A stretch of 54,655 bases of DNA from Enterobacteria phage mEp021. Shown here piece by piece: positions 6,587-54,655 of this stretch. Under the pieces are notes generated by a model, which worked only from the letters and a program-made list of their open reading frames with translations, ran no database searches and was not told the DNA's origin. The stretch lies in the sequence record MH706966, one strand, 5' to 3'. The stretch's first letter is position 1, and each line of letters begins with the position of its first letter. Position numbers and translations under genes: made by a program.

Positions 6587-7703
6587 GACACCCAACCATT
6601 TCAGGCCTATATACAAAGCGACCAATTTCGCCATAATCAGGGCTGTAAATGATAACCGCCGCGCAACGTTGCGATCTCCAGCCTCCATTAGTTGAATAAG
6701 CGTCTTTTCCCGCTAACGTGCCGTGGTGTTCAACTATGCCTATAGATGATTCTGTTACTGATTTATGGTGCAAATGTCCGACATGGACGTAAACATATTT
6801 CGACTTGCCAAAATCCTCACGCCAGTCAGCTACGCAAGCAGACAATAAATTTTCAGGCTTTTTGATAGTGTGCCCGTGGTGGTAAGCAAGGAATGTTTTT
6901 CCGTACTGTGTGTGGTGGACGATGGCAGGGGACACATCAACCGTCACGCGCGGTTCATCTTCGTAAAAAGCCGCCAGCGCCGCACGTAGCCAGATCATTC
7001 CTGACTGGTCGTGATTGCCGGATAACACCTGGATTTCAACATCCTTATGATTTAATAACATCTTCCCTACCGCCCGCCGGACAGACCGGATCGCTACATA
7101 AACAAGTTTTGCGTAGCGACTATCTTGATCAAGAATGTGCCCGCTTGTTGGTGTCACCGGGACCATACCGTCAGAATGAAGTAGATCGCCACCGAGGAGC
7201 AGTACTGCTTTTTCAGACATAGGAGCAGCGCCAACCGCGTAGTCAAAGAAGTCATTCAACACGCGCTCAGCGATCCCAGTATCGTAGCTCTCACCGCATT
7301 CAGCTTTATGAGCAAGTGCCCCGATATGCAGGTCAAACACCGGATAAAGAGCCAGGCTTTTTTGAAAATCAATTTCCGGCACTGGCACTGCCTCCGCGCG
7401 TGGTATTTCTTCCGTGAATGCGTCGCGGGCGGCTTCCATTAGCCTTTCCATTTCATCGCGATCACGGGCTGTTTTAATCCAGCGCATGACCGTATTACCA
7501 GCCTTATCGACAAGAACAGATTCACCAGTAACGCCAAAACCCGGTGCGCGGCGCGTTGATAATAAACCGCGTTTCGCCAGCTTTGCGCCAAGCCGCTCGA
7601 CGTTGCGTTTTGACATGCCATATTTTTCGGCGATCTGTTTATACGTTAAACCGTTGTTATATTCAGCGATCAATTGCTCATCGCTTATCTTTCTTTGCGA
7701 CAT
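6573..7703 (-). CDS. HTH domain fused to calcineurin-like metallophosphoesterase (Mre11/SbcD or lambda-PPase-like)
   Basis: 376 aa; N-terminal LTYKQIAEKYGMSKRNVERL HTH; phosphoesterase motifs LLGGDLLHSDG, LSGNHDQ, HHGH, HVGHLHH. Confidence 0.6.
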   Translation of the reverse strand: MSQRKISDEQLIAEYNNGLTYKQIAEKYGMSKRNVERLGAKLAKRGLLSTRRAPGFGVTGESVLVDKAGNTVMRWIKTARDRDEMERLMEAARDAFTEEIPRAEAVPVPEIDFQKSLALYPVFDLHIGALAHKAECGESYDTGIAERVLNDFFDYAVGAAPMSEKAVLLLGGDLLHSDGMVPVTPTSGHILDQDSRYAKLVYVAIRSVRRAVGKMLLNHKDVEIQVLSGNHDQSGMIWLRAALAAFYEDEPRVTVDVSPAIVHHTQYGKTFLAYHHGHTIKKPENLLSACVADWREDFGKSKYVYVHVGHLHHKSVTESSIGIVEHHGTLAGKDAYSTNGGWRSQRCAAVIIYSPDYGEIGRFVYRPEMVGCHDVG

Positions 7704-7736
7704 AATGTTACTTCCTCATGTTTACGTTTTGTATAT

Positions 7737-9224
7737 TCATTGGCAGAAAACAATCTCTTTAAATGCTTTTTCTACCATGTCGAATACTTCCGGCCTGTAA
7801 TAGAAAAACTCATTGCTTCCATCAAATTTCACAGGAAAATTGATTTTATAATTACTAAAAGCCTTATGCATCGTGTTTTCTAGTTTATGTATACTTTCGG
7901 TTGGCCCTTCTAACGTTTTCACGACACACAAATCAGGGATTCTAACACCTGCTTTATGTGCGCTTTTTAATATCCGATTTCTTCGCTCGTTCTCCTTAAC
8001 ACTTACGCCGATTTTCATTTGTGTAGGTAATTCCAGATCATCAACCATGATGTAAAGTTTGCCATAATCATAACGAAAGAAACCGTATTTAGCGCATTTT
8101 TGGCAACCCCTACCGCGCTTAAGTTCTCTAGGTCTAACCGACCACTTATGATTACAAACCTTACAGCGGCATGATACTTTTTTATTTACGTTCGTTATTT
8201 CTCCCAGCACTTCAACATCAGGATTAACCTTAGCAATAGCTAAAACATGTTCTTCGTGCGTTATAATCTTCCCAGCACATTTTGGGCAACCCTTCCCGCG
8301 TTTAAGGTTGCTAGGAGTAACCGACCACTTATGATTACAAACCTTACAGCGGCATGATACTTTTTTATCTACGTTCGTTATTTCTCCCAGCACTTCAACA
8401 TCAGGATTAACCTTAGCAATAGCTAAAACATGTTCTTCGTGCGTTATAATCTTCCCAGCACATTTTGGGCAACCCTTACCGCGCTTAAGGTGGTTAGGTC
8501 TAACTGACCATTCATGATCACAAACCTTGCAGCGGCATAATACTTTTTTGTCGCCACCTGTAATTTCACCCAGCACTTCAACATCAGGATTAACCTTCGC
8601 AATGGCAGCAATTTGTTTATAATGTGATAGTCTTAGTTTTTGTGCAATTTTCACACATTTACATTTCGGGCAACCGCTCCCGTGTTTAAGGGCGTCAGGC
8701 GTAGCCGACCATACACGATCACAAATCTTGCAGCGGCATAATACTTTTGTTCTGCTATTAACAATTTTCCCCAGCACTTCAACATCAGGATTAATTCTTG
8801 AGATGGCGGCGATCTGTTCTTCGTGTGATAATCTTTTTGGCCCTTGCTTTAACATTGCGCATTTCGGGCAACCATTCCCGCGTTTAAGGTTGCTAGGAGT
8901 AACCGACCACTCATGATCACAAACCTTGCAGCGGCATAATACTTTTGTGCTGTTATTTATTATTTCCCCCAACACTTCAACATCAGGATTAATTTTAGCA
9001 ATAGCCGCAATTTGTTCTTCGTGGGATAGCCTTGCGTTCCCAGCGCATTTTGGGCAACCTTTACCGTGTTTAAGGTTGCTAGGAGTAACCGACCATTCAT
9101 GATCACAAACCTTGCAGCGGCATAATACTTTTTCCCGGCTTCCAGTAATTTCTCCCATCACTTCAACATCAGGATTAACTTTCGCAATAGCTGCAACCTG
9201 TTCTTCGTGTGTTAGCTTGCACAT
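7737..9224 (-). CDS. Protein with six tandem Zn-ribbon modules and a C-terminal GIY-YIG-like (T5orf172-type) domain
   Basis: 495 aa; six ~55-aa repeats HEEQVAAIAKVNPDVEVLGEI...C.C..C.H.W...P..L..G.GCPKC; C-terminal GKLYIMVDD...KIGVS...RRNRIL pattern; repeats 5 and 6 are near-identical at DNA level. Confidence 0.55.
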   Translation of the reverse strand: MCKLTHEEQVAAIAKVNPDVEVMGEITGSREKVLCRCKVCDHEWSVTPSNLKHGKGCPKCAGNARLSHEEQIAAIAKINPDVEVLGEIINNSTKVLCRCKVCDHEWSVTPSNLKRGNGCPKCAMLKQGPKRLSHEEQIAAISRINPDVEVLGKIVNSRTKVLCRCKICDRVWSATPDALKHGSGCPKCKCVKIAQKLRLSHYKQIAAIAKVNPDVEVLGEITGGDKKVLCRCKVCDHEWSVRPNHLKRGKGCPKCAGKIITHEEHVLAIAKVNPDVEVLGEITNVDKKVSCRCKVCNHKWSVTPSNLKRGKGCPKCAGKIITHEEHVLAIAKVNPDVEVLGEITNVNKKVSCRCKVCNHKWSVRPRELKRGRGCQKCAKYGFFRYDYGKLYIMVDDLELPTQMKIGVSVKENERRNRILKSAHKAGVRIPDLCVVKTLEGPTESIHKLENTMHKAFSNYKINFPVKFDGSNEFFYYRPEVFDMVEKAFKEIVFCQ

Positions 9225-16833: not shown

Positions 16834-16931
16834 CTATGGACGAAACATTGCTATTCATGTGCATTTGCTGGGGTTTTATTGCCTTATGCCTGTTTATCAG
16901 GTGGTTTATTGAATACCATATGAGGTGATAT

Positions 16932-17126
16932 ATGGAACAGAAAACTGATTATAGAATACCTGACAACCTGAAGTTAGTTGGCATTGGTTTTGGTTGTCGT
17001 TTTGTATCTGACGCAAACGGGGCGATTTATTTAGTGCGCATCATTGATGGCGTTCAACATATAAGAAGGCTAGGACTTTACATCAAAGCATTTAGAAGAG
17101 GTTATTTGAAAACTCATGAAATTTAA
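16932..17126 (+). CDS. Hypothetical protein (64 aa)
   Basis: ORF with SD gaggtga. Confidence 0.4.
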   Translation: MEQKTDYRIPDNLKLVGIGFGCRFVSDANGAIYLVRIIDGVQHIRRLGLYIKAFRRGYLKTHEI

Positions 17127-17319
17127 ACAGTATAAAGAATGGAAGATTCCAGAAGAAGCGACAAAGGCAGCGCCCGGAATTTTTTCGGGCGTTTATTTTT
17201 ATATGGGCGGTAAATGGTATTTCGGCAGCAGGCCGGATCACTATTATCAAGAATTATGCAAATCTCACACATGGGACATTAATGAACGCGTGCAAGGCGG
17301 TGTAATAGACGAGGTTTAA
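17116..17319 (+). CDS. Hypothetical protein (67 aa)
   Basis: ORF overlapping its neighbours by a few nt. Confidence 0.4.
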   Translation: MKFKQYKEWKIPEEATKAAPGIFSGVYFYMGGKWYFGSRPDHYYQELCKSHTWDINERVQGGVIDEV

Positions 17320-17320
17320 A

Positions 17321-17557
17321 ATGATTAATGGTTTTTTAAGCTGGTTAAGAGTGTGGTTTTTTGCCACGCTTTTCGTTTTTTTGGCGTTCAGCGGTGTCAT
17401 TGTCATATTTACGCTGGCGATGATGTTCATTACATGGTCAGTACCTGAATTTAACAATCTTGGAAGTATTTTTGCTGTCGCCCGCGCCATGTTTGCTTGT
17501 AGCGCATTTGTTGGTTTTTGTTGGAGTGTTTCGCCTGATTGGGATGATGAATGGTGA
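17321..17557 (+). CDS. Small membrane protein (78 aa, two predicted TM helices)
   Basis: Hydrophobic segments FFATLFVFLAFSGVIVIFTLAMMFI and FACSAFVGFCW. Confidence 0.45.
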   Translation: MINGFLSWLRVWFFATLFVFLAFSGVIVIFTLAMMFITWSVPEFNNLGSIFAVARAMFACSAFVGFCWSVSPDWDDEW

Positions 17558-17561
17558 TCCT

Positions 17562-17795
17562 ATGGCCTTGTTCAATATGTCAGAACTGCAATTCAACGCC
17601 GTAAAAGCTGCCGCCCGCGCTGCACTTTCTGCTTGCAAAGCGGAGGTAGAGAAAAACGGCTACAGCGATAAAGCCACGCGGCTGATATTAGAAAAGCATT
17701 ATCGCAAGGTCGCCCCACTAATCAGCATTGAGCGCTTTGTGTGGTTGGTGGGGTATTTAAACAACCGTTGGGGGACGGAACAAGATTATTTCTAA
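17562..17795 (+). CDS. Hypothetical protein (77 aa)
   Basis: Internal ATG start chosen to avoid overlap with the upstream membrane-protein ORF. Confidence 0.4.
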   Translation: MALFNMSELQFNAVKAAARAALSACKAEVEKNGYSDKATRLILEKHYRKVAPLISIERFVWLVGYLNNRWGTEQDYF

Positions 17796-17804
17796 GGGGG
17801 CGTA

Positions 17805-18344
17805 ATGAAAAATGATTTTGGAGGCAGCCACACTCCTAAGGAAATTAAAGATCTATGGCAGACGCCTAAACCAGTTTTCAGAGGAATGGACCGCGAATTT
17901 GAATTTGTCGCTGACGTGGCGGCAAACAAGGAAAATGCGCTAGTTCCTCGGTATATAACCGAAGAAATGGACACGTTGCATTATCCGTGGGGAGCTGTGG
18001 CAATGCCTGGTGAGTATGTCTGGCTTAATCCGCCATATTCTAAACCGGGGCCATTCGTTGAGAAGGCGGCATTAGAACATCAACGAAATCACATTGGCTG
18101 TGTAATGCTGTTGCCCGCTGACATTTCTGTTAGCTGGTTTATGAACGGCGTGGATACGGCAAACGAATGCCGATTAATCACGCGCGGGCGGCTGGCGTTT
18201 ATCAATGCTGCGACTGGTAAGCCAGTAAGCGGAAACAATAAAGGGAGCTTGTTTTTGATCTGGCATCCACGGTGCAGACATGAATGTATTTTTACACACA
18301 TAACACGTAAAGAGCTATACGCAAGAGGTGCAGATAATGACTAG
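17805..18344 (+). CDS. dam: Phage-type DNA N6-adenine methyltransferase (Dam-like)
   Basis: 179 aa; WQTPKPVF...DVAANKENALVPRYIT...WLNPPYS pattern of the phage Dam family; SD aaggggg. Confidence 0.75.
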   Translation: MKNDFGGSHTPKEIKDLWQTPKPVFRGMDREFEFVADVAANKENALVPRYITEEMDTLHYPWGAVAMPGEYVWLNPPYSKPGPFVEKAALEHQRNHIGCVMLLPADISVSWFMNGVDTANECRLITRGRLAFINAATGKPVSGNNKGSLFLIWHPRCRHECIFTHITRKELYARGADND

Positions 18345-18834
18345 TGCAGCAGATTTACTACGAATCGCAGCGGAAACAATTGAGCAAAGAGGTAAACAAA
18401 ACGGCTACGACAGAAAAGAGGAAAAATCAGCGCCAAAAATAGCCACTATATACAACGCTAAGAAGGGCGCAAATTTAACCCCACTTGATGTATGGGATCT
18501 GATGATTTGTCTTAAGGAGGCGCGTTTAGAGGCTATTTTGGTTAATGGCAGCGATCCCACTGACACTTTGGTTGACCTAATCAGCTACAGCGCACTAAAA
18601 GCTGAGCAAATATTGAATGATCTGGATGAAGAGTTAAAGAAAAATCAGTTCACTGCCGCCAATATTAATGATGGAATAATAAATGACGCAGCAATAACAA
18701 GCTGTAAGGGATTGCCGCCTTCAATGCTTAAACCTCAGTGTGGCTGTATTTCAAATCGGCTTGATTTGAGTTTTGACAGATCTGAAGCTATTCGCGACAA
18801 GAGGTATGACCCAAATGAAAAAGGTGACAATTGA
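18337..18834 (+). CDS. Hypothetical protein (about 165 aa)
   Basis: ORF with SD aagagg; no motif recognised. Confidence 0.45.
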   Translation: MTSAADLLRIAAETIEQRGKQNGYDRKEEKSAPKIATIYNAKKGANLTPLDVWDLMICLKEARLEAILVNGSDPTDTLVDLISYSALKAEQILNDLDEELKKNQFTAANINDGIINDAAITSCKGLPPSMLKPQCGCISNRLDLSFDRSEAIRDKRYDPNEKGDN

Positions 18835-43384: not shown

Positions 43385-43738
43385 TTATTTGCCATTAAAA
43401 CAGCCCAGGTTATCTATGCAGAAGTCTTTTGCCGCTTTTTCGTATTCGCGTTTTGCTTCCGGATCGTCAGCTGGAAAACCTTTTGCGTGTATTTCTCCAG
43501 GGCAAGATTGATCCATAGAATCAGCAAATTCAACATTGACGTTAAAGTTAATATCTTTCGGGTTCATCTCTTCCACCTTATCCGGTACTTGGACCGGAGT
43601 AATATCAAAATCACGATAGTTAAACCCACAGCGAAGTAATTCACGACCTTCATCACGCGCCGCAGCATATGTGTCAAATAGGCCCATGCGTTCCCATCCG
43701 CATTTATTAGTAAACACGTCTAAACTGTATTTTTGCAT
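43385..43738 (-). CDS. Hypothetical protein (117 aa)
   Basis: ORF in the opposite-strand island. Confidence 0.45.
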   Translation of the reverse strand: MQKYSLDVFTNKCGWERMGLFDTYAAARDEGRELLRCGFNYRDFDITPVQVPDKVEEMNPKDINFNVNVEFADSMDQSCPGEIHAKGFPADDPEAKREYEKAAKDFCIDNLGCFNGK

Positions 43739-43750
43739 TTTGTTAACCTC

Positions 43751-43981
43751 TCATTTGACGGGTTCGATCTCGTACCCCAAAACGCGTTCGTCTTCAGCAA
43801 GTAAAAGCGCGTCAACCAGCGCATCGCCTTCATCTTTATACAGGGCCACAAGCATTTCCCTGCCATCAGCCAGGAACACCGTCAACCTCCACACCTTATC
43901 ATCCATCGCACACCTCCGCGCCATTTTGTTAACCCTGCTTCCTTTTGAGTACAATATACATATTGTAAAAAGCGCTATCAA
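43751..43981 (-). CDS. Hypothetical protein (57-76 aa)
   Basis: First gene of the opposite-strand island; acidic. Confidence 0.35.
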   Translation of the reverse strand: MIALFTICILYSKGSRVNKMARRCAMDDKVWRLTVFLADGREMLVALYKDEGDALVDALLLAEDERVLGYEIEPVK

Positions 43982-44033
43982 CCGTTTTGGTATGATTTAG
44001 CGTGACGTAGATCACAAATTGCAAGGTGATAAA

Positions 44034-44738
44034 ATGCGCAGCATACCTACAGAAATGATTATTGATTCCGTGGATGCCGGAGTCGGCGCGGTAATTGACT
44101 TGTTTGAATTAGACCTCACGCCCCTGGGTGGCGAGGTTATCCGCTTCCATTCCGGCGCGAATGGCTATTACGGCCCGGTTATCTGGAAGGGGGTGGCCTA
44201 CAACAGCTACCCAATCGAGGCGACTGGCTTCGAAATGAAAAACGAAGGCGTTTACTCACGCCCACAAATGGTAGTAGCCAACATCGGCGGGCTAATCACC
44301 GGGATGAATAACGATTTTAACGACCTGCGAGGAATGAAGGTTACGCGCCGCCAGGTGGAGGTAAAATACCTGGACGCCGTTAATTTCCCCAACGGCAACC
44401 CGGATGCAGATCCATCTATTGAGGCTGTGTCTTTTTACGTCGTTGAAGCGATGAGTGAAGAAACAGCCGACCAGGTGCAATATGAACTGTCAACGCCAAT
44501 TGATGCTGATAAGGCGGTTATCCCTGGGCGCACAATTCTCGCTGACGTTTGCCAGTGGCAATATCGCGGCGACGGTTGCGGATACAGTGGCGGCCCTGTA
44601 GCTACAGATAAAGACGAATCGACCAGCGATCCAAAACTGGATAGATGCAGCCACCGCCTGAGCGGTTGCCGTTTGCGTTTTCCGCGCCCCAACCCGTTAC
44701 CAATTTCCTGTTTCCCGGGATCAAGCAAGGTGGGTTGA
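44034..44738 (+). CDS. L: Minor tail protein L
   Basis: Closely parallels lambda gpL as recalled, including the C-terminal Cys cluster CQWQYRGDGCGYSG...CSHRLSGC; SD aaggtg. Confidence 0.85.
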   Translation: MRSIPTEMIIDSVDAGVGAVIDLFELDLTPLGGEVIRFHSGANGYYGPVIWKGVAYNSYPIEATGFEMKNEGVYSRPQMVVANIGGLITGMNNDFNDLRGMKVTRRQVEVKYLDAVNFPNGNPDADPSIEAVSFYVVEAMSEETADQVQYELSTPIDADKAVIPGRTILADVCQWQYRGDGCGYSGGPVATDKDESTSDPKLDRCSHRLSGCRLRFPRPNPLPISCFPGSSKVG

Positions 44739-44740
44739 TT

Positions 44741-45472
44741 ATGGCGCTTGAAGATAAAATGATTCGCTATGCCGCAGCACACCCGGAAGAGGAGGTGTGC
44801 GGGCTGGTGATAGATAACGATTATTTTTACCCGTGCTTAAACGTGTCTGAAACGCCGCACAACAGCTTTAAAATATCGCCTGACGATTATATCAAAGCTG
44901 ACGAATTAGGCGTTATAACCGCCGTTTTTCACTCCCATACTGACAATTCGTTGATATTGTCAGCACGGGATCGACAACAGCAGGTTATTTCCGGCCTGCC
45001 GTGGTATTTGTGTTCCGGCGGCAGGGTTAGAAAGTTCCGCCCGGTGGCGCACCTGTTGGGCCGTAAATTTGAACACGGTAAAACAGATTGTTACTCGCTT
45101 TTCCGTGACGCATATCACCTATGCGGCGTGGATCTGCCCGACTTTGAGCGCCACGATGGGTGGTGGCTGCGTGGGGAAAACCTGTACATAAAAAACCTGC
45201 CATTGAACGGGTTTTTCATGGTTGACGCGCAAAGCATTCAGCCAGGTGATGTGATTATTCGCCAGCCTTTTAAAGGCGCTGACCCATGTCACGCGATGAT
45301 TTACCTGGGCGATAACACCGTTTTGCATCATGACAATGCCGGACTGTTAAGCCGCCGCGAGCAAATGCGGCCAGCTTATGTTAGGCAAACGCATTCAATA
45401 TGGAGATCTGACAAATGCTCAAATTTAGATTTACGGGCAATCTTCGAAGATATTACGGCAAGGTGTGTTTAA
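44741..45472 (+). CDS. K: Tail assembly protein K (JAB/MPN plus NlpC/P60-like domains)
   Basis: Closely parallels lambda gpK as recalled (EEVCGLV, HSH, FEHGKTDCYSLFRDAYHL). Confidence 0.85.
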   Translation: MALEDKMIRYAAAHPEEEVCGLVIDNDYFYPCLNVSETPHNSFKISPDDYIKADELGVITAVFHSHTDNSLILSARDRQQQVISGLPWYLCSGGRVRKFRPVAHLLGRKFEHGKTDCYSLFRDAYHLCGVDLPDFERHDGWWLRGENLYIKNLPLNGFFMVDAQSIQPGDVIIRQPFKGADPCHAMIYLGDNTVLHHDNAGLLSRREQMRPAYVRQTHSIWRSDKCSNLDLRAIFEDITARCV

Positions 45473-45945
45473 ACGTTGATACGCCAGCGCAGGGACTTCG
45501 CTTATTGACCGCACAGAATCAGGAGTTCAAGAAGGCTTTTTTAAACACCCCATTGCGCTTGCGAATTGCCGGAAAAGATTACGACGAAAAGACCGCACCC
45601 GCAGCGGTTAACAGTAAATACCAGGATGGTACTACCGTCATTGTTGCGCCAGTGGTGGAAGGCGGTATTGCAGGGATTGGCGTTGTAGGCTGGATTTTGA
45701 TCGGTGTTTCGGTTGTTAGCGTTGCGTTCTCAAGAGTTGTGTCACGCAACATGAAGATAAAAACATCAGCAGAAAGCGCACAAGATAACACCATATCTAA
45801 CAACACATACACCAGCGTTGAAAACAAGGTTGGCCAGGGTAGACCAGTGCCGATCCTGTTGGGTGAAATGAAAATAGGTTCAAACGTCGGATCGTTAGGC
45901 ATAGACACAAGTAATAACAAAGACGCCTTAGACGTTGTAAGTTAA
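45415..45945 (+). CDS. I: Tail assembly protein I
   Basis: 176 aa; N-terminal ubiquitin-like region and C-terminal glycine-rich hydrophobic segment as in lambda gpI; overlaps the gpK end. Confidence 0.7.
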   Translation: MLKFRFTGNLRRYYGKVCLNVDTPAQGLRLLTAQNQEFKKAFLNTPLRLRIAGKDYDEKTAPAAVNSKYQDGTTVIVAPVVEGGIAGIGVVGWILIGVSVVSVAFSRVVSRNMKIKTSAESAQDNTISNNTYTSVENKVGQGRPVPILLGEMKIGSNVGSLGIDTSNNKDALDVVS

Positions 45946-45957
45946 TAGGGGGTTACA

Positions 45958-46524
45958 GTGAACTGGTCTGAATTGTTTGTTTATGATGAAGATTCTCCTT
46001 CATGTTTAAGGTGGAAAGTCACCGCTAACAGCAGAACGGCGAGGACTGGCGATGCGGCAGGAAAAATAGTAGCGGCAAAAAGCGGCAATAAGTACTGGAA
46101 AATCACATGGAAGGGCCGTCGCTATTATGCTCACCGGATTGTTTACGAATTATGCAGTGGCAGAAAATTAAAACGCAGTGAGATCATCGATCACATTGAT
46201 GGTAATGGGCTTAATAATAAATTCAATAACATACGCGTAACAGATAAAAAAGGTAACGCCAGAAATATGACCATAGGTCGCGCGACAAGGGAGAGCGGAT
46301 TGCCATTTGGGATATGTTGGCACGCAGAAGGGAGATCTATTAGAGCACGTATCACCGCTGATAACGACAAAAGAGTTAGTAAATCATTTAGCGTTATAGC
46401 GTGCGGTGGACTTGAAATGGCTATTAATGCCGCCGTCGCGTGGCGGTCATTCATGATTGAAGAGCTAAATAAAGCTGGCGCAGGATACACGAAATTACAC
46501 GAAACAGGGGGTTTATATGTCTAG
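45958..46524 (+). CDS. HNH homing endonuclease with AP2-like domain, inserted between I and J
   Basis: 188 aa; SEIIDHIDGNGLNNKFNNIRVTDKKGNARN HNH motif; GTG start with SD aggggg; paralog of 6080-6586. Confidence 0.7.
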   Translation: MNWSELFVYDEDSPSCLRWKVTANSRTARTGDAAGKIVAAKSGNKYWKITWKGRRYYAHRIVYELCSGRKLKRSEIIDHIDGNGLNNKFNNIRVTDKKGNARNMTIGRATRESGLPFGICWHAEGRSIRARITADNDKRVSKSFSVIACGGLEMAINAAVAWRSFMIEELNKAGAGYTKLHETGGLYV

Positions 46525-49500
46525 TGGCGGCGGTAAAGCAAAAACGCCAACTTTGCTTAATGATAATTTGTTTCATAAACAATTTTATCGGGTTTTAGAT
46601 ATTCTAAGTGAAGGACCAATTTTTGGAGTAGTTAACCAAACAGCGCCATTAAACAGCGTAATGCTTAATGACACGCCTATCACTGACGCAAGCGGAAACA
46701 CATCAGTCCCTGGCGTTAGCTTAGCGTGGCGTAATGGTACGGCTGACCAGTCACCAATCAACGGCTTCAACGCTATTGAGTCAACCGTTATTGTCAACGC
46801 AAAAGTAACTCACGACACACCAATAATCAGGACCATTTCAGATCCCAACGTTAACCGCGTAAGGCTGAATCTTGGCGTTGACTCTTTGGTAAGGTCAGAT
46901 GACAAGGGCAATCAATACAATACATCCGTTATGTTGATGGTTGATGTCAAACCTTCATCGTCATCAACGTGGTCACTGGTTAAAGATATTACTATTGGCC
47001 CAGGCAAACAAAGCGGTGAGTATCTAGAAGCCCACATTATCAACGCGCCGGATGAAAAACCGTTTGATATTCGCGTTCGTCGCGTAACGCCAGACAGCAC
47101 GGGAGATCTTCTTCACAATGATACCAGGTGGAGCAGTTACAGCGAGATAATCGATGATAATTTGTCTTATCCCCATACCGCTGTTGCTGGCGCGGTAATT
47201 GACCACGATCAGTATACTGATACGCCTACCCGCACCTATCATCTGCGTGGGCTGATTGTTGATGTTCCTGATAACTACGACCCGGAAACGCGCACGTATT
47301 CAGGATTATGGCTTGGTGGCTTTAAAAAGGCGTATACCAATAACCCTGCATGGCTTTTCCGGTATCTGGTTAAAAATGAACGTTTCGGGCTTGCCCGTCA
47401 TGCTGGTTACATTGATGTTGACGACGGCGCATTATATACGCTTTCTCAATACTGCGACCAGTTGGTTAGCGACGGATACGGCGGCTTTGAACCTCGCATG
47501 ACGCTTAATGCTTACATCACGGAGCAAATGAGCGCACGCGACTTACTTGATAACATTGCAGGCATGTTCCGTGGTATCGCGTTATGGGACGGGCAACGCC
47601 TTACCGTGATGATTGATGCACCACAAGATCCGATCGCCACCATTACAAATGCAAACGTCGTTGATGGCGCGTTTACTCGTTCAAGTATTGCCCGCGCAGA
47701 ATCTTACAACGCCGTGATTGTGTCATGGACTGACCCAGAAAACGGCTGGGAGCAATCAAAAGAATACGTGGCAGATGATGAATTGATCGCCCGCGACGGT
47801 TATAACGAAACAACGCTAGAGGCGTTCGGTTGCACGTCACGCGGGCAAGCGTACCGCGCTGGCAAATGGCTGATAGAAACGGCAAAACGCGAGCCATCAA
47901 AATTCACGTTTAAAATGGCCCGTGACGCAATTCACTTCACCCCCGGGGATATTATCGAGATACTCGACAATAACCGCGCTGGCGCTCGTTTAGGCGGCCG
48001 CATCGTGGCGAACAGTGGGAAGGTGATAACGGTAGACAAGGTTGATTCTGAATATATCGCGGCTGGTGACACTATCAGTTTACTTGATAGTGATGGCAAG
48101 TTTAAAAAACACCAGATCACCGGAGTTAACGGAAACAACATCACCCTTGCAACCGCCCCCGCATGGATTCGTAACGGGACCGTATTCGCTGTGTCAACTG
48201 AAGCGGCAAAACCTGTTCTGTGTCGAATTATCAGCGTAGCAGAAACAGAAAATAACAGCGTGTACACCATCGAGGCAGCACAACATGACCCACACAAACA
48301 GGCTGTAGTTGATGAAGGCGCAATCTTCGAGGTAAACAACGACACGCTTAATCACTTCCGCGTGCCGAACATTGAAAATCTGAAGGTGTTAAACGTTGGT
48401 TCTGAAACTGTTCAATGTCGCGCTACATGGGAAACACAGACGACAACGCATCGCCTGACCTTTGAAATACGCGTATATAACGCCGAAGGCCGCGTGGTGG
48501 CAGCTTATGAAACAACGAATTACCGCTATGATTTTTATGGCCTCGATGCTGGCAGCTACACACTTGGTATTCGCGGTCGTAATGACACTGGCATGAAGGG
48601 GGCGGAAAGTATTGTTGACCTGGTTATTGGCGCGCCAGCGGCCCCAATTGGAGTTAATTGGGTTCCCGGCGTTTTCCAGGCAACAGTATACCCGATCAGC
48701 AAAACAACACTGACAACTGATACAGCATACGAGTTCTATTTCTCAGGTGAAAATCAGATCACTGACCCATCAAAAGTAACAACTTTGGCGCAGTTTACCG
48801 GGCGCGGCTATCAGTGGACTTTTGGCGGAATGAACACGGGCCATACCTATTACGTTTATGTCCGCACACGTAACGCTTTTGGTGTGTCAGATTTCGTTGA
48901 GTCATCAGGAAAACCAACTGAAAACTTCGATGAAATTAGCGACTACGTCACCAAAGACGTGATTAACTCAGAACAGTTTAAAGGGATGATTAGCGACATT
49001 AAAGATCTTGGCGACCGCGCCGACCTTATCGAAAGCGCTACAAATGACCTTAAAACTGCTACCGACAACCTCAAAACTGCAACTGATAACCTGACAAACA
49101 TCACTGACGATTTAATGGTTGACACTGACAACCTGACAAACATCACTGACGAATTGAGGACTGATACGGACGGCTTAATCACAGAAACAGGGGCCATAAA
49201 AGCTGATACGGACACACTGAAAAAACAAACGGAAGATCTTTATAAAAAGGTTGGGGAAAACGCCGATGATATTGGACAGCATGAGGCAAGAATAGATTCA
49301 CTGGAGGTATCTAGCGAAAAAGTTGGCAGTGAACTTGCGCAAGCAAAAGCAAGCCTGCAAAACGCGTCATTGGCGCTTATCAATAACTCACTTGCACAGA
49401 CTAACACTCGCGTAACTCTTACCGCTCAGTATAAGAAAGGCAGGACAGAGACGAAGGCTGAAATTGACCGTATTGACAACGTTATTGCTGAAGAGAAAAA

Positions 49501-51700
49501 GGCAACGGCTGAATCACTGGAAACCATCACGGCAGAAATGAACACGATGGATTCTAACCTTAAAGGTCAGATCTCAAGCGTGGAACGCGCAGTGGCTGAC
49601 GAGGCCAGCGCACGCGCAGAAGCCATTAACGGTGTGAACGCATCAATAAGCAATCTAGACAAGAAAACAGACGCCAGCATCAATAGACTTGATCAAGCTA
49701 TTGCAGACGAAACGAACGCCCGCACACAGGCAGTCAGTGACGTTAACGCGAGTATCTCATCGCTAGACAAGAAAACTGACGCCAGCGTTAAACGCTTGGA
49801 TCAAGCAATTGCAGACGAAACCAGTGCAAGAACTGAAGCTATCAGCGGCGTGAACGCATCAATTTCCACTCTTGATAGCAAGGTAACAAGCAATGTAACG
49901 CGCATAGATAAAGCTATTGCAGACGAAACGAAGGCACGCACTGACGCAATCAGCGGCGTTAATGCAAGTATTAGCACACTCGAAGGCAACACCAATTCAG
50001 AAGTGAAACGCCTTGATCAAGCAATAGCTGACGAGACTAGTGCCCGCACACAGGCTATCAGCGGTGTAAATGCTTCGATAAGCAATCTTGAAAGCAAAAC
50101 TGACGCGAGCGTTTCCCGTCTTGATAAAGCAATATCAGATGAAACGCAGGCAAGAAGTGCCGCAATAACAGAGGTTAAAGCTGATTTGTCAACGCTCGAA
50201 AATAGCACAAACGCCAGCGTTAAACGCCTTGATCAGGCGATTGCCGACGAATCAAGCGCACGCGCTGAAGCAATATCGGGCATCAACGCAGAGATTGGCA
50301 ACATTGAAAATAATGTTGACAAAAACAGCGATGATATAAATCAGACAAAAGCAAGCCTGCAAAACGCGTCTATCGCGCTTATTAACAACTCAATCGCTCA
50401 AACAAACACGCGTGTTACGCTTACGGCCCAATACAAGAAAGGCCGCAAAGAAACCAACGCGCAAATTGACCGTATTGACAATGTTATCGCTGAAGAGAAA
50501 AAGGCTACAGCGGAAGCGGTTAGCGTGGTAAAAGCATCGATCACGGATCTTGATAAGAAGACTGACGCGAGTGTTTCCCGTCTCGACAAGGCTATCGCAG
50601 ACGAAACAAGCGCACGCAGCGAGGCTATTAGCGGAGTAAATGCCTCAGTGTCAGCGCTAGACAAGAAAACGGATTCAAACATAAGCCGTCTTGATAAAGC
50701 CATTGCAGATGAGACAAGCGCAAGAACTGAAGCTATCAGTGGAGTGAATGCAAGTATTATCACTCTTGAAAGCAACACTGAATCTGAAGTTGGCAGGCTG
50801 GATCAGGCAATTGCCGACGAATCAAGTGCCCGCGCCCAGGCTATAAGCGGAGTGAACGCATCAATTTCCACTCTTGATAGTAAGGTGACAAGTAACGTAA
50901 CCCGTATTGATAAGGCTATTGCAGACGAAACGAAGGCACGCACTGACGCGATAAGTAGCCTTAATTCATCGCTTACCAGTACGATTAATTCGAAAGTGTC
51001 TGAAGTATCAACGGCACTTTCTACGCATGAAGCATCAAGCGCTGAAAAATTTAGCCAGATCTCTGCGTCTTTCGAATCTGTAAACTCAAGTATTACAGAA
51101 TGGTCACAATCTATGGCAACGGCTGACGAGGCATTGTCAACCAAAATTGATCAGTTAACAGTAACCGTTAACGGTAACAAAACGGCGATCGAGACGACAT
51201 CGAATGCGCTAACCGATTTCAAGGGTAACGTTGATGCGTCATATTCAATCAAGCTCGCCACCGATAACAACGGCATGAAGTACGCGACAGGTATGTCGCT
51301 TGGCCTGACTGGTAACGGCACAAACTTTCAATCGCAGTGTATTTTCCTCGTTGACCGCTTCGTGTTAATGACCTCAGCAAACGGCACATATACAACACCT
51401 TTCTATGTCACCAATGGTGCGATGTATGTGAAAGAAGCGTTTATTAAAGACGGATCGATCGATACTGCAAAAATAGCGCAGCAAATCCAGTCAACTGTAT
51501 TTGTTCAAGACTCAAAAGGTTGGATGATTAACAAAGATGGATGGGCGCAATTCAACGAAGTTACTGTAAGGGGTAACGTCATTGTTAAAGGCAATCAAAA
51601 TTTCGATGTACGCAATAGTGACGGACGGGTAATTATTAACAATAATGGCATTACAGTAAATCTTCCTAGTGGTGGTAAAATTATTATCGGTGTTTGGTAA
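46517..51700 (+). CDS. J: Central tail fibre / host specificity protein J, expanded by internal repeats
   Basis: 1727 aa; N-terminal about 800 aa parallels lambda J as recalled; about 13 copies of a 33-aa repeat in the centre; lambda-J-like distal region retained. Confidence 0.9.
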   Translation: MSSGGGKAKTPTLLNDNLFHKQFYRVLDILSEGPIFGVVNQTAPLNSVMLNDTPITDASGNTSVPGVSLAWRNGTADQSPINGFNAIESTVIVNAKVTHDTPIIRTISDPNVNRVRLNLGVDSLVRSDDKGNQYNTSVMLMVDVKPSSSSTWSLVKDITIGPGKQSGEYLEAHIINAPDEKPFDIRVRRVTPDSTGDLLHNDTRWSSYSEIIDDNLSYPHTAVAGAVIDHDQYTDTPTRTYHLRGLIVDVPDNYDPETRTYSGLWLGGFKKAYTNNPAWLFRYLVKNERFGLARHAGYIDVDDGALYTLSQYCDQLVSDGYGGFEPRMTLNAYITEQMSARDLLDNIAGMFRGIALWDGQRLTVMIDAPQDPIATITNANVVDGAFTRSSIARAESYNAVIVSWTDPENGWEQSKEYVADDELIARDGYNETTLEAFGCTSRGQAYRAGKWLIETAKREPSKFTFKMARDAIHFTPGDIIEILDNNRAGARLGGRIVANSGKVITVDKVDSEYIAAGDTISLLDSDGKFKKHQITGVNGNNITLATAPAWIRNGTVFAVSTEAAKPVLCRIISVAETENNSVYTIEAAQHDPHKQAVVDEGAIFEVNNDTLNHFRVPNIENLKVLNVGSETVQCRATWETQTTTHRLTFEIRVYNAEGRVVAAYETTNYRYDFYGLDAGSYTLGIRGRNDTGMKGAESIVDLVIGAPAAPIGVNWVPGVFQATVYPISKTTLTTDTAYEFYFSGENQITDPSKVTTLAQFTGRGYQWTFGGMNTGHTYYVYVRTRNAFGVSDFVESSGKPTENFDEISDYVTKDVINSEQFKGMISDIKDLGDRADLIESATNDLKTATDNLKTATDNLTNITDDLMVDTDNLTNITDELRTDTDGLITETGAIKADTDTLKKQTEDLYKKVGENADDIGQHEARIDSLEVSSEKVGSELAQAKASLQNASLALINNSLAQTNTRVTLTAQYKKGRTETKAEIDRIDNVIAEEKKATAESLETITAEMNTMDSNLKGQISSVERAVADEASARAEAINGVNASISNLDKKTDASINRLDQAIADETNARTQAVSDVNASISSLDKKTDASVKRLDQAIADETSARTEAISGVNASISTLDSKVTSNVTRIDKAIADETKARTDAISGVNASISTLEGNTNSEVKRLDQAIADETSARTQAISGVNASISNLESKTDASVSRLDKAISDETQARSAAITEVKADLSTLENSTNASVKRLDQAIADESSARAEAISGINAEIGNIENNVDKNSDDINQTKASLQNASIALINNSIAQTNTRVTLTAQYKKGRKETNAQIDRIDNVIAEEKKATAEAVSVVKASITDLDKKTDASVSRLDKAIADETSARSEAISGVNASVSALDKKTDSNISRLDKAIADETSARTEAISGVNASIITLESNTESEVGRLDQAIADESSARAQAISGVNASISTLDSKVTSNVTRIDKAIADETKARTDAISSLNSSLTSTINSKVSEVSTALSTHEASSAEKFSQISASFESVNSSITEWSQSMATADEALSTKIDQLTVTVNGNKTAIETTSNALTDFKGNVDASYSIKLATDNNGMKYATGMSLGLTGNGTNFQSQCIFLVDRFVLMTSANGTYTTPFYVTNGAMYVKEAFIKDGSIDTAKIAQQIQSTVFVQDSKGWMINKDGWAQFNEVTVRGNVIVKGNQNFDVRNSDGRVIINNNGITVNLPSGGKIIIGVW
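49560..50960 (+). repeat. Coding tandem repeats within J (about 99-bp units) plus a roughly 1-kb segmental duplication
   Basis: Repeat unit ...DASVxRLDxAIADETSARTEAISGVNASISxLDxKT...; the linker gcaagcctgcaaaacgcgtc... occurs at about 49345 and again at about 50350. Confidence 0.8.
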
Positions 51701-51740
51701 CCACTGTTGCCCCGCCAAATGGTTGGGGCAACTAATTTTA

Positions 51741-52685
51741 TTAATAAATTACTGGCAAATAAGGAAGATTCATACCTATACAGAAATCCGGCCTGTTACC
51801 TATTTCATACCTGACAATCCTTGATCCTGTTCCGCTTTTCACCTGCCCGTTGTACATCATAATGCCTTTGTATCTTAGTTCCTTGTATGCTGATATAGCT
51901 CTAGTATTAAAGCCGCATCTCAATATTGGGAAGAACGCGTCACCTATTGTCTGGTAACTATTCGATAACGCTATAAATCCCTTAACAACCAATGGCCTTT
52001 GTTTTGTTGAAAACACGCATTGATTATTTTTATTAATGATGGTTATTCCGTCGCCAGGTGATGGCGGTGATTTGCTAAAAATAGCCAAATTCATCGTTAC
52101 CGATCCATATGTGTCACCAGTTGCAGAAGTGTTTGTGTTTGTACAGATCAATTTATTGTTTCCGTCAAACTCAACTGAAACACCGCTATTGCTCCAGTTA
52201 CCGAAAGGAACACCGGCAACTGGCATAGTGTAAGAACCATTAAAGCTAACACTCCCAACCCATAAACATGACATCAATGTATCGTTAGTCGTTATCGATG
52301 CAAAATCTGTGCTATCTGCAACTAATATACCCTCACCAGTAGACGCCTTTGCTATCTCAAACACGCTACCGCTAAAATTAGTGATCCTATCAGAATATGC
52401 GTTCTCACCACTAATTGAAATCCTTGCCGTGCCACCAGAAGCACTAAAGCCTGATATAAAATATGTTTCAACACCCCTGTCAAGCTCAAACGCGTAAGCG
52501 CCTACCTTTGGGATTAGAAACTTATCGCCGCCAGTTAAATCCTTTATGGAAAAACTTTGCGAAAACCCAGCATTTTGAATATTGAAATCTCCAGCGTGTG
52601 AGAACGCACGCAACCCGCTTGTTATTTCCATTGCAGGGCGTCCGTCATTCAGCCCAATATATATACCCGCCCCCATTAGTACCAC
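51741..52685 (-). CDS. Hypothetical Gly/Ser/Thr/Asn-rich protein (314 aa), opposite strand after J
   Basis: Long ORF; beta-rich composition; no motif recognised. Confidence 0.5.
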   Translation of the reverse strand: MVLMGAGIYIGLNDGRPAMEITSGLRAFSHAGDFNIQNAGFSQSFSIKDLTGGDKFLIPKVGAYAFELDRGVETYFISGFSASGGTARISISGENAYSDRITNFSGSVFEIAKASTGEGILVADSTDFASITTNDTLMSCLWVGSVSFNGSYTMPVAGVPFGNWSNSGVSVEFDGNNKLICTNTNTSATGDTYGSVTMNLAIFSKSPPSPGDGITIINKNNQCVFSTKQRPLVVKGFIALSNSYQTIGDAFFPILRCGFNTRAISAYKELRYKGIMMYNGQVKSGTGSRIVRYEIGNRPDFCIGMNLPYLPVIY

Positions 52686-52894
52686 TCCTTACTTCCGCAA
52701 TCTCTAGTCTTGCCACTATGACCATCAGTGCCATCATAAACGCGACAGATCTCACCGGACGGAACCTTAGCCCCGTCAACCCATCTTTCATAGCAGACAC
52801 CGTATGCGCTAGTTGCACAATGGCCGTTGTGTCGATTAGTGTCAGCGCAACCAACCAGAATAGCCGCAACAGCGATAATTGTTACCATTTTCAT
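52676..52894 (-). CDS. Small Cys-rich lipoprotein (72 aa), moron
   Basis: MKMVTIIAVAAILVGCADTN... signal peptide with lipobox LVGC; six Cys; SD ggggtg. Confidence 0.55.
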   Translation of the reverse strand: MKMVTIIAVAAILVGCADTNRHNGHCATSAYGVCYERWVDGAKVPSGEICRVYDGTDGHSGKTRDCGSKEWY

Positions 52895-53028
52895 TAGTAC
52901 ACCCCACTCAGATTGTGTGTATTTGTTGCTTTGTTTATTATAATATACATTTTGTATAAGCATAAAATGCAACATAGATCACAAAATGGTAGAATTATTC
53001 CGTTAATTAACATAATGGAGTCATTGCG

Positions 53029-54378
53029 ATGATTTACACAACTGGAACAATTGCCATCAATGGCAACACTGTTACAGGCACGGGTACAAACTTTTCCGCG
53101 CCGCTTTCTCTCATTCGTGTAGGTTGCACGCTCATTACCATCGGCAATCCGGTGCAGATCTTTACCATCACAGAAAGGCCCAGCGGTACTGAACTGTCAG
53201 TAACGCCAGCGGCTAACCCTGCGATCCCCGCCGGAACAAAATTTAGCATTCTGCTTTCTGACTCGATCTCAGTAGATGGTCTTGCTCAGGACGTAGCTGA
53301 AACGCTGCGTTACTACCAGGGTAAGGAAACTGAAATTGCAGAAGCAATTGAATTTTTCCATGAATTTGATTTCAATGCACTTACAACGCTGGCTAACCAG
53401 GTTCACACTGATTCAGCGCAAGTAAGCGCAGATAAAGCGATAGTTCAGCAATATAAAACAGATTCCGAATCAGCCAAATCAGCAGCAGAAGCTGCAAAAG
53501 GTCAGGCGGTGTTAGCTCAAACCGCCGCAGAGACAGCTAATACCAACGCGCAAGCCGCCAGCACTGCAGCGCAGGGATTTTGCGATCGGGCCGAAGAATG
53601 GGCGCAAAGCGTAAACCCCGACAACCTGCTAACTAAAGCCGGCAACCTGGCAGGGTTGACAGATAAATCGGCGGCGAGGTCCAATCTTGGGGTTGGAGAT
53701 AATAGTTTAGTTAAGTTAGGTGCGCTGCACCTGAATGGTGGTGAGTCATTAGTGTTAAGGGGCGCAGAGTCTAACGAGTTAAGGTTGTCAAACTCTTTAT
53801 ACGGGGCTGATAGCTGGGTTGGGATGACGATGCATAAGTGGTACGAGGATTGGACGCGGGCTGGCTTGGTAAGGGGAGGTGGTACCAAATTATCAGACTA
53901 CCGCATCCATGTGTGGAAAGATGGTATATCTGATGCTTTATTCCGATTTTTGCCCGACCAAAGGCTTATTAGCGGCAACAGTGACAACCCGGCGGTTAAC
54001 GAGTTCCAGAAAGCGCCGCTATCGGACCGCGACCATAAAAAAGAAATCCAATACACGGACGGCGAGGAAAGCTACAACCGCGTTCGCCAATGGCTTCCGG
54101 TAATGTTTAAGTATAAAGAGTCGGATGTACAGCGATACGGCCTTATCGCGCAGGACCTGGTAAGGATTGACCCGGAATACGTGCATTTGCTGCCGGGCTA
54201 CGCCATCTATGAGGACGTCAAGGGGGTGGACGAGGAAGGGAACGAGGTAGTAGTAGACCGGAAGGAGATCGGGTATACAGACGATGTGCTGTCTCTAGAC
54301 AGTAATGTGCTGTTGATGGATCTGTGTGCCGCCTTCGTTCATCTGTTGCATAAAGTGGAGAAGCTGGAAGGTAAGTAA
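53029..54378 (+). CDS. Side tail fibre protein with C-terminal intramolecular-chaperone (S74-like) domain
   Basis: 449 aa; N-terminal MIYTTGTIAINGNTVTGTGTNF; Ala/Gln-rich coiled-coil centre; C-terminal ...YGLIAQDL... segment typical of autoproteolytic chaperone domains. Confidence 0.7.
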   Translation: MIYTTGTIAINGNTVTGTGTNFSAPLSLIRVGCTLITIGNPVQIFTITERPSGTELSVTPAANPAIPAGTKFSILLSDSISVDGLAQDVAETLRYYQGKETEIAEAIEFFHEFDFNALTTLANQVHTDSAQVSADKAIVQQYKTDSESAKSAAEAAKGQAVLAQTAAETANTNAQAASTAAQGFCDRAEEWAQSVNPDNLLTKAGNLAGLTDKSAARSNLGVGDNSLVKLGALHLNGGESLVLRGAESNELRLSNSLYGADSWVGMTMHKWYEDWTRAGLVRGGGTKLSDYRIHVWKDGISDALFRFLPDQRLISGNSDNPAVNEFQKAPLSDRDHKKEIQYTDGEESYNRVRQWLPVMFKYKESDVQRYGLIAQDLVRIDPEYVHLLPGYAIYEDVKGVDEEGNEVVVDRKEIGYTDDVLSLDSNVLLMDLCAAFVHLLHKVEKLEGK

Positions 54379-54384
54379 GGAAAA

Positions 54385-54411
54385 GGGGCCATACGGCCCC
54401 TTCTTTAGTTT
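54385..54411 (+). terminator. Rho-independent terminator after the tail fibre gene
   Basis: Hairpin ggggcc-atac-ggcccc followed by ttctttagttt. Confidence 0.7.
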
Positions 54412-54536
54412 GAGTTTTCCCAGCCCATTTTACGCCGCACCAACGAGATTTCGTAGTATTCCTTGCCTTCTACCTCCACCAACGGCCAATCGTTAATAAT
54501 CACGTATATCTCCGCTATACCTCAATCACGCCGCGC

Positions 54537-54566
54537 GAAACGAGGCTAACGCCTCGTTTCTTTTTG
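54537..54566 (+). terminator. Terminator-like hairpin immediately before the candidate attR core
   Basis: aaacgaggc-taac-gcctcgttt followed by ctttttgtg. Confidence 0.5.
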
Positions 54567-54586
54567 TGTACCAAATAGAGACCAAA
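54564..54586. repeat. Candidate attR core: ttgtgtaccaaat-aga-gaccaaa
   Basis: 20 of 23 match to 150-172. Confidence 0.3.
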
Positions 54587-54655
54587 TATCCAAAACAAAA
54601 AGCAAAAGCACTGTAACATACTGTTTTATAAATGATTATTCACAACACTAATCAT

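Follow-up and report, generated by a model that had tools for sequence, protein, structure and literature searches.

How has a lambda-like J protein reached a length of 1727 amino acids (aa), and what may the added segment contribute to the tail? The question is raised by Enterobacteria phage mEp021 (record MH706966), whose 54,655 nucleotides (nt) constitute the window analysed here. Gene J, which codes for the central tail fibre or tip attachment protein, is a single open reading frame (ORF) on the plus strand, 46517-51700, and the frame is uninterrupted across 5.2 kb. The original prediction for this DNA described a lambda-J-like N-terminal region, a short TDNL repeat and about 13 copies of a 33-aa repeat. 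It derived the array at least partly from a duplication of roughly 1 kb and expected a long fibrous segment which would be a likely site of length variation and of assembly error. The coordinates and the length which it gave for the ORF agree with the ORF list. We consider it likely that mEp021 J combines a lambda-type tip cone with a proline-free helical shaft, composed of heptads and two blocks of 36-aa units, and a distal tip. Here we examined the evidence for this architecture, the age and variability of the array and the genes which follow it.

Domain order and repeat array of J

In the N-terminal part of J four domains of lambda J were identified by Pfam, all above cut-off: FNIII-A_GpJ (aa 88-214), Phage-tail_3 (335-492), Ig_J (609-707) and Ig_J_second (709-811). 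Residues 1-851 matched lambda J structures, including PDB 8iyk, in a phmmer search (E=2.8e-180). Together, the domains and the phmmer match bear out the lambda-J-like N-terminal region of the original prediction. The full-length NCBIfam model lambda_TipJ reached 708 bits at a curated cut-off of 1950 and its match spans only aa 1-889. Further downstream, the Phage_Tail_Tip domain is 24% identical to aa 841-931 of lambda J (E=4e-7). The two proteins differ in the spacing of the last two domains. In lambda J, only 26 aa separate the end of Ig_J_second (818) from the start of Phage_Tail_Tip (845). In mEp021 J the respective positions are 811 and 1557. With 745 aa in place of 26, the whole repeat region is an insertion at one domain boundary.

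The repeat unit is 36 aa long, as measured by the spacing of the AIADE motif, and the corresponding DNA repeat family (D2) is spaced by 108 nt throughout. Residue identity at a lag of 36 was 0.61-0.64, compared to 0.05 at a lag of 33 and a maximum of 0.19-0.35 in 500 shuffles. Thus, the predicted period of 33 aa has to be corrected to 36 aa; the predicted copy number of about 13 stands. A hidden Markov model (HMM), built from 11 canonical units of mEp021 J itself, found 13 units, at aa 978, 1013, 1049, 1085, 1121, 1158, 1193 and 1229 in a first block and at aa 1311, 1347, 1383, 1419 and 1455 in a second. These 8 + 5 units comprise 11 canonical and 2 degenerate ones. The degenerate unit is the first of each block and makes up the second half of a 68-aa linker. 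A polar motif, D-x-A-I-A-D-E-T-x-A-R, is strongly conserved in every unit. The two blocks, each following the same linker of about 70 aa, were correctly seen beforehand: the linkers agree in 76% of their residues at an offset of 334 aa, compared to 6-21% at other offsets. In DNA the two linker-plus-block segments are 1002 nt apart and colinear for about 623 nt at about 71% identity (blastn E=1e-87). The TDNL repeat, placed upstream of the array at about 49030-49180, lies close to the measured array of TDxL heptads (Table 1), in which the identity at lag 7 is 0.44 and the hydrophobic period 3.54. Tandem Repeats Finder (TRF) reported only 1.9 copies of the 108-nt unit, the units being too diverged; we used the protein HMM and the lag analysis instead. 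No RNA family was detected by Rfam within 45500-53200. Two further features, ORFs on the minus strand within the repeats and a minus-strand terminator predicted within J of relatives, were set aside as by-products of repeat composition.

The length of this insert is not fixed. Phage mEp515 has a J protein of 1393 aa, and its gene differs from mEp021 J by the loss of exactly 1002 nt and by 2 further mismatches in 4182 nt. It is obtained when mEp021 J is cut anywhere at gene positions 3384-3434 and 1002 nt are removed. These positions form a patch which is 97-100% identical between the units at aa 1121 and 1455, contains exact repeats of 35 and 29 nt and is embedded in surroundings of about 70% identity. 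mEp044 has this patch too, mEp554 has a weaker form of it, and UMNK88 lacks it. This suggests that it arose by local gene conversion, which would have created a substrate for recombination. The 36-aa IADETxAR units and the linkers (13 units, 2 linkers) are colinear with those of mEp044 and mEp554. As both of these phages also have two blocks, mEp515 derives from such a layout by deletion and mEp021 J is not an expansion.

A comparison of J among relatives extended this picture. Other relatives have J proteins of 1478-1935 aa with 3-10 heptads and the layouts 5+5, 4+1, 5, 9+3, 5+3, 12+3 and 8+4; the upper end of the length range was taken from genes fetched out of complete genomes. mEp021 J has 13 units, mEp515 5 and mEp010 10. 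Among 132 J proteins 23 layouts were counted; 79 proteins have one block and 53 have two, and in the latter the block sizes are uncorrelated (r=0.14). Of the claims of the original prediction, length variation in the array is the best supported: on top of the 1002-nt difference to mEp515, the relatives span 1393-1935 aa and 5-15 units. The mEp021 gene has 86-94% nt identity to the J genes of its group, and 1727 aa is ordinary for this group. In a tblastn search, 125 phage records, from Escherichia, Klebsiella, Shigella, Salmonella, Enterobacter and Pantoea, had the repeat in J-like genes. J of this group is found in about 35 of 5426 complete E. coli genomes.

Is the array old, or is its length an assembly artefact produced by short SOLiD reads which collapsed or expanded the repeats? 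The mEp021 genome was indeed built from SOLiD reads, which Velvet joined into eight contigs, and closed by Sanger sequencing (Negrete-Mendez et al., 2025; PMC11893012), and a J gene which is 1002 nt shorter in an otherwise identical sequence, as in mEp515, is what such an artefact might look like. However, pairs of units share only 60% of their residues and 61% of their nucleotides (range 42-75% in DNA), and no exact DNA repeat in the J gene is longer than 35 nt. With units that diverged, an assembly collapse is unlikely. At about 70% identity to the first, the second 1-kb segment is unique sequence which needs its own reads and is not producible by collapse or expansion. The open frame argues in the same direction, as do complete E. 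coli genomes with similar or longer arrays. mEp044 and mEp554, which were independently assembled from MiSeq data, have 13 units at the same coordinates, and mEp515 was assembled with SPAdes from 150-nt reads (PMC11893012), which would not collapse a 35-nt repeat. We conclude that an artefact is hardly credible, and the expectation that the array is prone to assembly error did not hold. Between units, identity is 74% at codon positions 1 and 2 and only 35% at position 3; 58% of the conserved residues are encoded by different codons. The difference between codon positions indicates that the array is old and has been kept by selection on the protein. The proposed origin of part of the array by a duplication of about 1 kb is supported by the two segments at 1002-nt spacing, yet the event is ancient (about 70% nt identity) and, being common to mEp044, mEp554, mEp010, UMNK88 and others, it is not specific to the mEp021 genome.

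A putative helical shaft

What structure may such an insert adopt? It contains not a single proline in 745 aa. In the 36-aa blocks the hydrophobic period is 3.60 residues with a power of 220, compared to 32±10 for shuffled sequences, i.e. about 18 standard deviations above. An amphipathic periodicity in the range of 3.5-3.67 residues thus runs along the segment, 3.60 in the blocks and 3.54 in the heptads. The hydrophobic columns of the unit (7, 10, 14, 25, 28, 32, 35) fit a 7+11+7+11 pattern. An AlphaFold2 (AF2) model of the monomer has helices at aa 819-927, 934-962, 979-1296 and 1311-1533 (109, 29, 318 and 223 residues; predicted local distance difference test, pLDDT, 50-78). The major breaks comprise 14-16 residues and occur once per linker copy at the NTRVTLTAQYKKGR motif; a further gap of 6 residues is at aa 928-933. 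In the Phage_Tail_Tip region AF2 places strands, and the monomer model has a beta-rich C-terminus. The model was computed from a 12-sequence alignment; its mean pLDDT was 58.9 and its predicted template modelling score (pTM) 0.22. Such a low confidence is as would be expected for a single chain of a fibre. The periodicity, the lack of proline and the AF2 helices agree with the prediction that the repeats add a long fibrous segment.

Beyond the helical character, we infer a trimeric parallel coiled coil, its extended geometry and length, and hinges. About 811 N-terminal residues would build the lambda-type tail-tip cone. In a J trimer, a stoichiometry adopted from the lambda and T1 J structures, the insert would most likely be a parallel three-stranded coiled-coil shaft. 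As 36 residues in a 7+11+7+11 pattern correspond to 10 helical turns, a nearly straight, nearly unsupercoiled bundle is predicted, in which whole units might be gained or lost without upsetting the core register. Homologous recombination between diverged units would alter the length of the shaft. Candidate hinges are the two NTRVTLTAQYKKGR breaks, which are conserved. At full extension and in line, the approximately 679 helical residues could span about 100 nm as an upper bound. The shaft would keep the distal tip far from the tail, and the tip probably bears a separately encoded receptor-binding protein (RBP).

Several points weigh against this architecture. The AF2 monomer model backs secondary structure only, not the quaternary structure or the geometry. 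The 3.6-residue period is a harmonic of the 36-aa repeat and as such is not fully independent evidence. The paper on the group gives a size for the tails only, about 130 nm (PMC11893012). In addition, receptor recognition, in this case of OmpA, was published as a role of the J C-terminus and not of a separate protein (PMC11893012).

Alternatively, the insert may fold back at the NTRVTLTAQYKKGR breaks such that blocks 1 and 2 are antiparallel and the trimer contains a six-helix bundle. This would result in a shorter, thicker rod or in a spring-like element which rearranges upon receptor binding. The two similar blocks with the same break ahead of each, weak compositional matches to heptad-repeat regions of viral fusion proteins and to SMC coiled coils, and the reported bending of the lambda and T5 central fibres during infection (PMC11945409) are compatible with a fold-back. 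The matches are, however, far below significance or curated cut-offs, the sizes of the two blocks vary independently (e.g. 12+3, 5+5, 4+1), and the majority of the 132 homologues, among them that of the viable phage mEp515, have a single block. Pairing of blocks cannot therefore be required, and we consider the folded-back form improbable. The weak matches to SMC, SF-assemblin and spike proteins, all below cut-offs, were discarded as compositional coiled-coil noise. Further, the units themselves might be adhesive, e.g. for surface glycans or lipopolysaccharide along the shaft, instead of serving as a passive spacer, considering that the conservation of the unit's motif exceeds what a simple coiled coil would require. 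Yet the domain and profile searches of J returned no match to a carbohydrate-binding family, the conserved residues are at core-adjacent positions of the 7+11 pattern and unit number varies freely. Adhesive units thus appear very improbable.

The tip of J and the genes behind it

The proposed shaft ends in a tip whose composition bears on receptor binding. Past Phage_Tail_Tip, mEp021 J has 36 aa, compared to a further 125-155 aa in the LamB-dependent phages mEp044, mEp554, mEp010 and mEp013. The tip motif NGITVNL..GGKI..G.W is common only to WCHEC025970, whose downstream RBP gene is 97% identical. The domain Ig_GpJ_C (PF12421) is absent by Pfam from mEp021 J and from all ten relatives scanned. 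It had been expected in the LamB-dependent relatives, and the scan found none in their C-terminal extensions (mEp044, locus 7790-8479, and mEp554, mEp010 and mEp013); BLAST similarity of these J C-termini to lambda is confined to the shared tip domain. The lipoprotein Lpp010 of LamB-dependent relatives excludes lambda (PMC11893012).

Directly 3' of J and convergent with it are a DUF6453 gene and a lipoprotein gene (Table 1). The DUF6453 protein matches PDB 9rpt, the LptDE-binding RBP of phage Oekolampad (PMC12685063). The lipoprotein, Lpp021, matches Rtp45 (PDB 9rps_D), a superinfection-exclusion lipoprotein which binds LptDE; experimentally, Lpp021 excludes mEp021 and mEp515 (PMC11893012). 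The same convergent arrangement next to a J-like gene was found in the BASEL phage FritzHoffmann, whose DUF6453 homologue is 37.6% identical. In small siphoviruses an RBP locus is located downstream of gpJ and a dedicated RBP is attached non-covalently to the J tip; those which are devoid of this locus have a J with a C-terminal binding extension (PMC8594841; preprint 10.64898/2026.04.02.716166). The mEp group displays the same either/or: a long C-terminal J extension goes with no RBP gene, a short tip goes with an RBP gene. By analogy, since its J lacks a C-terminal extension and is followed by homologues of an RBP and an exclusion lipoprotein, mEp021 J probably is a hub and shaft with a docking tip for a separate RBP. 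The terminal receptor then may be LptD, with OmpA in another role.

According to the published assignment, J itself is the receptor-binding protein, and the DUF6453 protein would be a moron or exclusion partner outside the virion, with the last approximately 80 residues of J binding OmpA. An ompA knockout lowers plating of mEp021 and mEp515, which share the J C-terminus, to about 1e2 PFU (plaque-forming units)/mL (PMC11893012). Moreover, the DUF6453 gene is on the strand opposite to J, overlaps and is co-oriented with the lipoprotein gene, and the PHROGs label of its family is 'membrane protein, moron'. On the other hand, infection was not abolished in the ompA knockout. The DUF6453 protein matches the solved LptDE-binding RBP (E=8.9e-46) and the lipoprotein matches Rtp45 (E=1.8e-18), the convergent arrangement recurs in FritzHoffmann, and the RBP gene is absent with the long extension and present with the short tip. 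The gene lptD is essential. As it is missing from the Keio set, it is not detectable in a Keio screen and would have remained invisible there. The paper which assigned OmpA has no mention of LptD or Rtp45 (PMC11893012). On balance, we regard binding by J alone as rather unlikely. Because an LptD-type RBP and an exclusion lipoprotein are encoded beside J, the published assignment of the J C-terminus to OmpA may be incomplete.

Tentatively, one may go a step further. In mEp021 and mEp515, J could be a unit-modular, near-straight boom whose tip docks an Oekolampad-type RBP, with the essential LptDE as the true terminal receptor and OmpA as an accessory requirement; the length of the boom would be reset stepwise by recombination between diverged blocks. 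We put this forward as a possibility, not as an expectation. If J and the RBP target LptD, the side tail fibre protein is a candidate for the OmpA-dependent step. This protein of 449 aa, encoded at 53029-54378 (+), has a C-terminal Peptidase_S74 intramolecular chaperone domain (PF13884, E=1.5e-9).

A third type of locus was encountered in the E. coli UMNK88 prophage (locus 7590-8769). There, a short-tipped J is followed by two plus-strand genes, phrog_557 'outer membrane protein' and phrog_425 'membrane associated protein', and then by cor. This suggests an FhuA-type RBP locus in the same phage group. A relationship of DUF6453 to the UMNK88 downstream gene was considered and is not claimed (BLAST E=0.033, not significant).

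Window positions 16919-18368 (1450 nt) are 100% identical to a GenBank fragment of mEp021 (JQ072023), a phage listed as MH706966 in PMC11893012. Relative to mEp515, the mEp021 genome is mosaic. Identity is 98.3% in the first 25 kb, 92.7% in 25001-46516, where coverage is 76%, and 99.3-99.8% in the part which starts about 3 kb upstream of J and reaches the right end (43500-54655). This pattern suggests that the whole host-range module, i.e. J, RBP, lipoprotein and side fibre, has recently been exchanged.

As to its meaning, the repeat array by itself is ordinary: it belongs to a published phage and to a widespread class of J-like fibres and has already been noted in print; therefore, it is of little novelty. 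More interesting is the RBP locus next to J, which the original prediction did not flag. The array shows how central tail fibres can gain or lose whole helical units and remain functional. With J genes which differ by exactly 1002 nt, mEp021 and mEp515 lend themselves to testing whether the length of the fibre is important for access to outer-membrane receptors. If the proposed architecture is true, mEp021 with 13 units and mEp515 with 5 units, about 50 nm shorter, are a natural near-isogenic pair for relating fibre length to adsorption and host range.

Table 1. Features of gene J and of the genes directly downstream (positions in the window)
Feature	Position	Strand	Basis
J, central tail fibre / tip attachment protein, 1727 aa	46517..51700	+	phrog_31 'central tail fiber J', E=0
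Lambda-J-like N-terminal part, tip hub and FNIII/Ig domains (aa 1-811)	46517..48949	+	Pfam, phmmer
Putative helical insert, 745 aa (aa 812-1556), between Ig_J_second and Phage_Tail_Tip	48950..51184	+	Pfam domain spacing
Heptad array, about 10 TDxL heptads (7 aa, 21 nt), aa 840-909	49034..49243	+	Motif scan, heptad register, TRF period 21
Linker copy 1 (aa 945-1012), second half a degenerate 36-aa unit	49349..49552	+	76% aa identity to copy 2; repeat D4, 82% nt
Break NTRVTLTAQYKKGRTE within linker copy 1, predicted non-helical	49403-49450	+	AF2 break, aa 963-978
Block 1, seven canonical 36-aa (108-nt) units, aa 1013-1264	49553..50308	+	AIADE spacing 36; D2 spacing 108 nt; lag-36 identity 0.61
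Recombination patch, deletion junction of mEp515	49900..49950	+	Gene positions 3384-3434; exact 35-nt repeat at gene positions 3397/4399
14-aa spacer NNVDKNSDDINQTK from block 1 to linker copy 2	50309..50350	+	Sequence
Linker copy 2 (aa 1279-1346), with predicted non-helical break NTRVTLTAQYKKGR at 50405-50446	50351..50554	+	AF2, linker identity
Block 2, four canonical 36-aa units, aa 1347-1490	50555..50986	+	HMM, motif and DNA spacing; lag-36 identity 0.64
Partner copy of the recombination patch	50902..50952	+	Sequence comparison
Phage_Tail_Tip domain, beta-rich distal fibre (aa 1557-1691)	51185..51589	+	PF09327, E=1.2e-36
Short 36-aa C-terminal tip, without receptor-binding extension	51590..51697	+	No Ig_GpJ_C; tip motif NGITVNL..GGKI..G.W
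DUF6453 protein, homologue of the Oekolampad LptDE-binding RBP	51741..52685	-	PF20051, E=1.6e-104; phmmer 9rpt_C, E=8.9e-46
Phage lipoprotein Lpp021, Rtp45 homologue	52676..52975	-	PF24052, E=2.6e-31; phmmer 9rps_D, E=1.8e-18

Comparison with known systems

The nearest published description is that of the mEpimmI group (mEp021, mEp515, mEp044, mEp554, mEp010 and mEp013), whose J proteins share the repeat region (Negrete-Mendez et al., 2025; PMC11893012). Its authors identified J in the mEp021 virion by mass spectrometry and reported that the J proteins of the group differ in size and have 'repeats of different length (positions 950-1,475)' (PMC11893012). That report gives neither the unit of 36 aa nor its arrangement in two blocks, nor the helical periodicity, the exact 1002-nt deletion in mEp515 or the downstream RBP locus. 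The counterparts in mEp515, mEp044 and mEp554 are annotated as 'host specificity protein J'. The 120 J homologues listed by a protein database search are all 1600 aa or shorter, apparently owing to a length cap, as J proteins of 1656-1935 aa occur in GenBank genomes; most of those listed carry Pfam PF28217.

With lambda gpJ (PDB 8iyk) mEp021 J has in common the N-terminal approximately 850 aa with the four Pfam domains, the Phage_Tail_Tip domain and the gene order, i.e. J after the tail-tip genes L, K (JAB + NlpC/P60) and I, as judged by ORF order, the Pfam domains of the K-like ORF and the annotations of relatives. It differs from lambda gpJ by the size of the segment between Ig_J_second and Phage_Tail_Tip and by its end: lambda gpJ terminates in the LamB-binding domain Ig_GpJ_C (aa 1001-1132), which mEp021 J does not have. 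A further difference in gene order is an ORF of 188 aa (45958-46524, +; HNH_3, PF13392, E=1.6e-9) between genes I and J, which overlaps the start of J by 8 nt. This endonuclease ORF is present in mEp515 and absent from mEp044, mEp554, mEp010, mEp013, MagusPhagus and the E. coli prophages examined. Probably it is a mobile homing-endonuclease insertion.

T1 gp33 (PDB 9l9p) resembles mEp021 J in its J-like N-terminus and in its IA(D/T)ETxAR type of repeat (phmmer E=2.4e-6 to the insert). Its unit is 33 aa long and is present about 3-4 times in a C-terminal part of 352 aa, whereas the mEp021 unit of 36 aa is present 13 times and is accompanied by heptads and duplicated linkers. The C-terminal 352 residues of T1 gp33 are too flexible for cryo-electron microscopy (cryo-EM), and an AlphaFold3 (AF3) prediction shows them as an alpha/beta fibre about 37 nm long (PMC11945409).

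Lastly, the locus behind J may be compared with Rtp44/Rtp45, the Oekolampad RBP and T5 pb4/pb5/Llp (PMC8594841; PMC12685063). Unlike the Drexlerviridae/Dhillonvirus-type RBP systems, mEp021 is a temperate phage of another group with OmpA, not LptD, as its published receptor phenotype, and an attachment of its RBP to J is putative. Common to mEp021 and these systems are homologues of an RBP and of a lipoprotein directly downstream of J, and a J without a binding extension.

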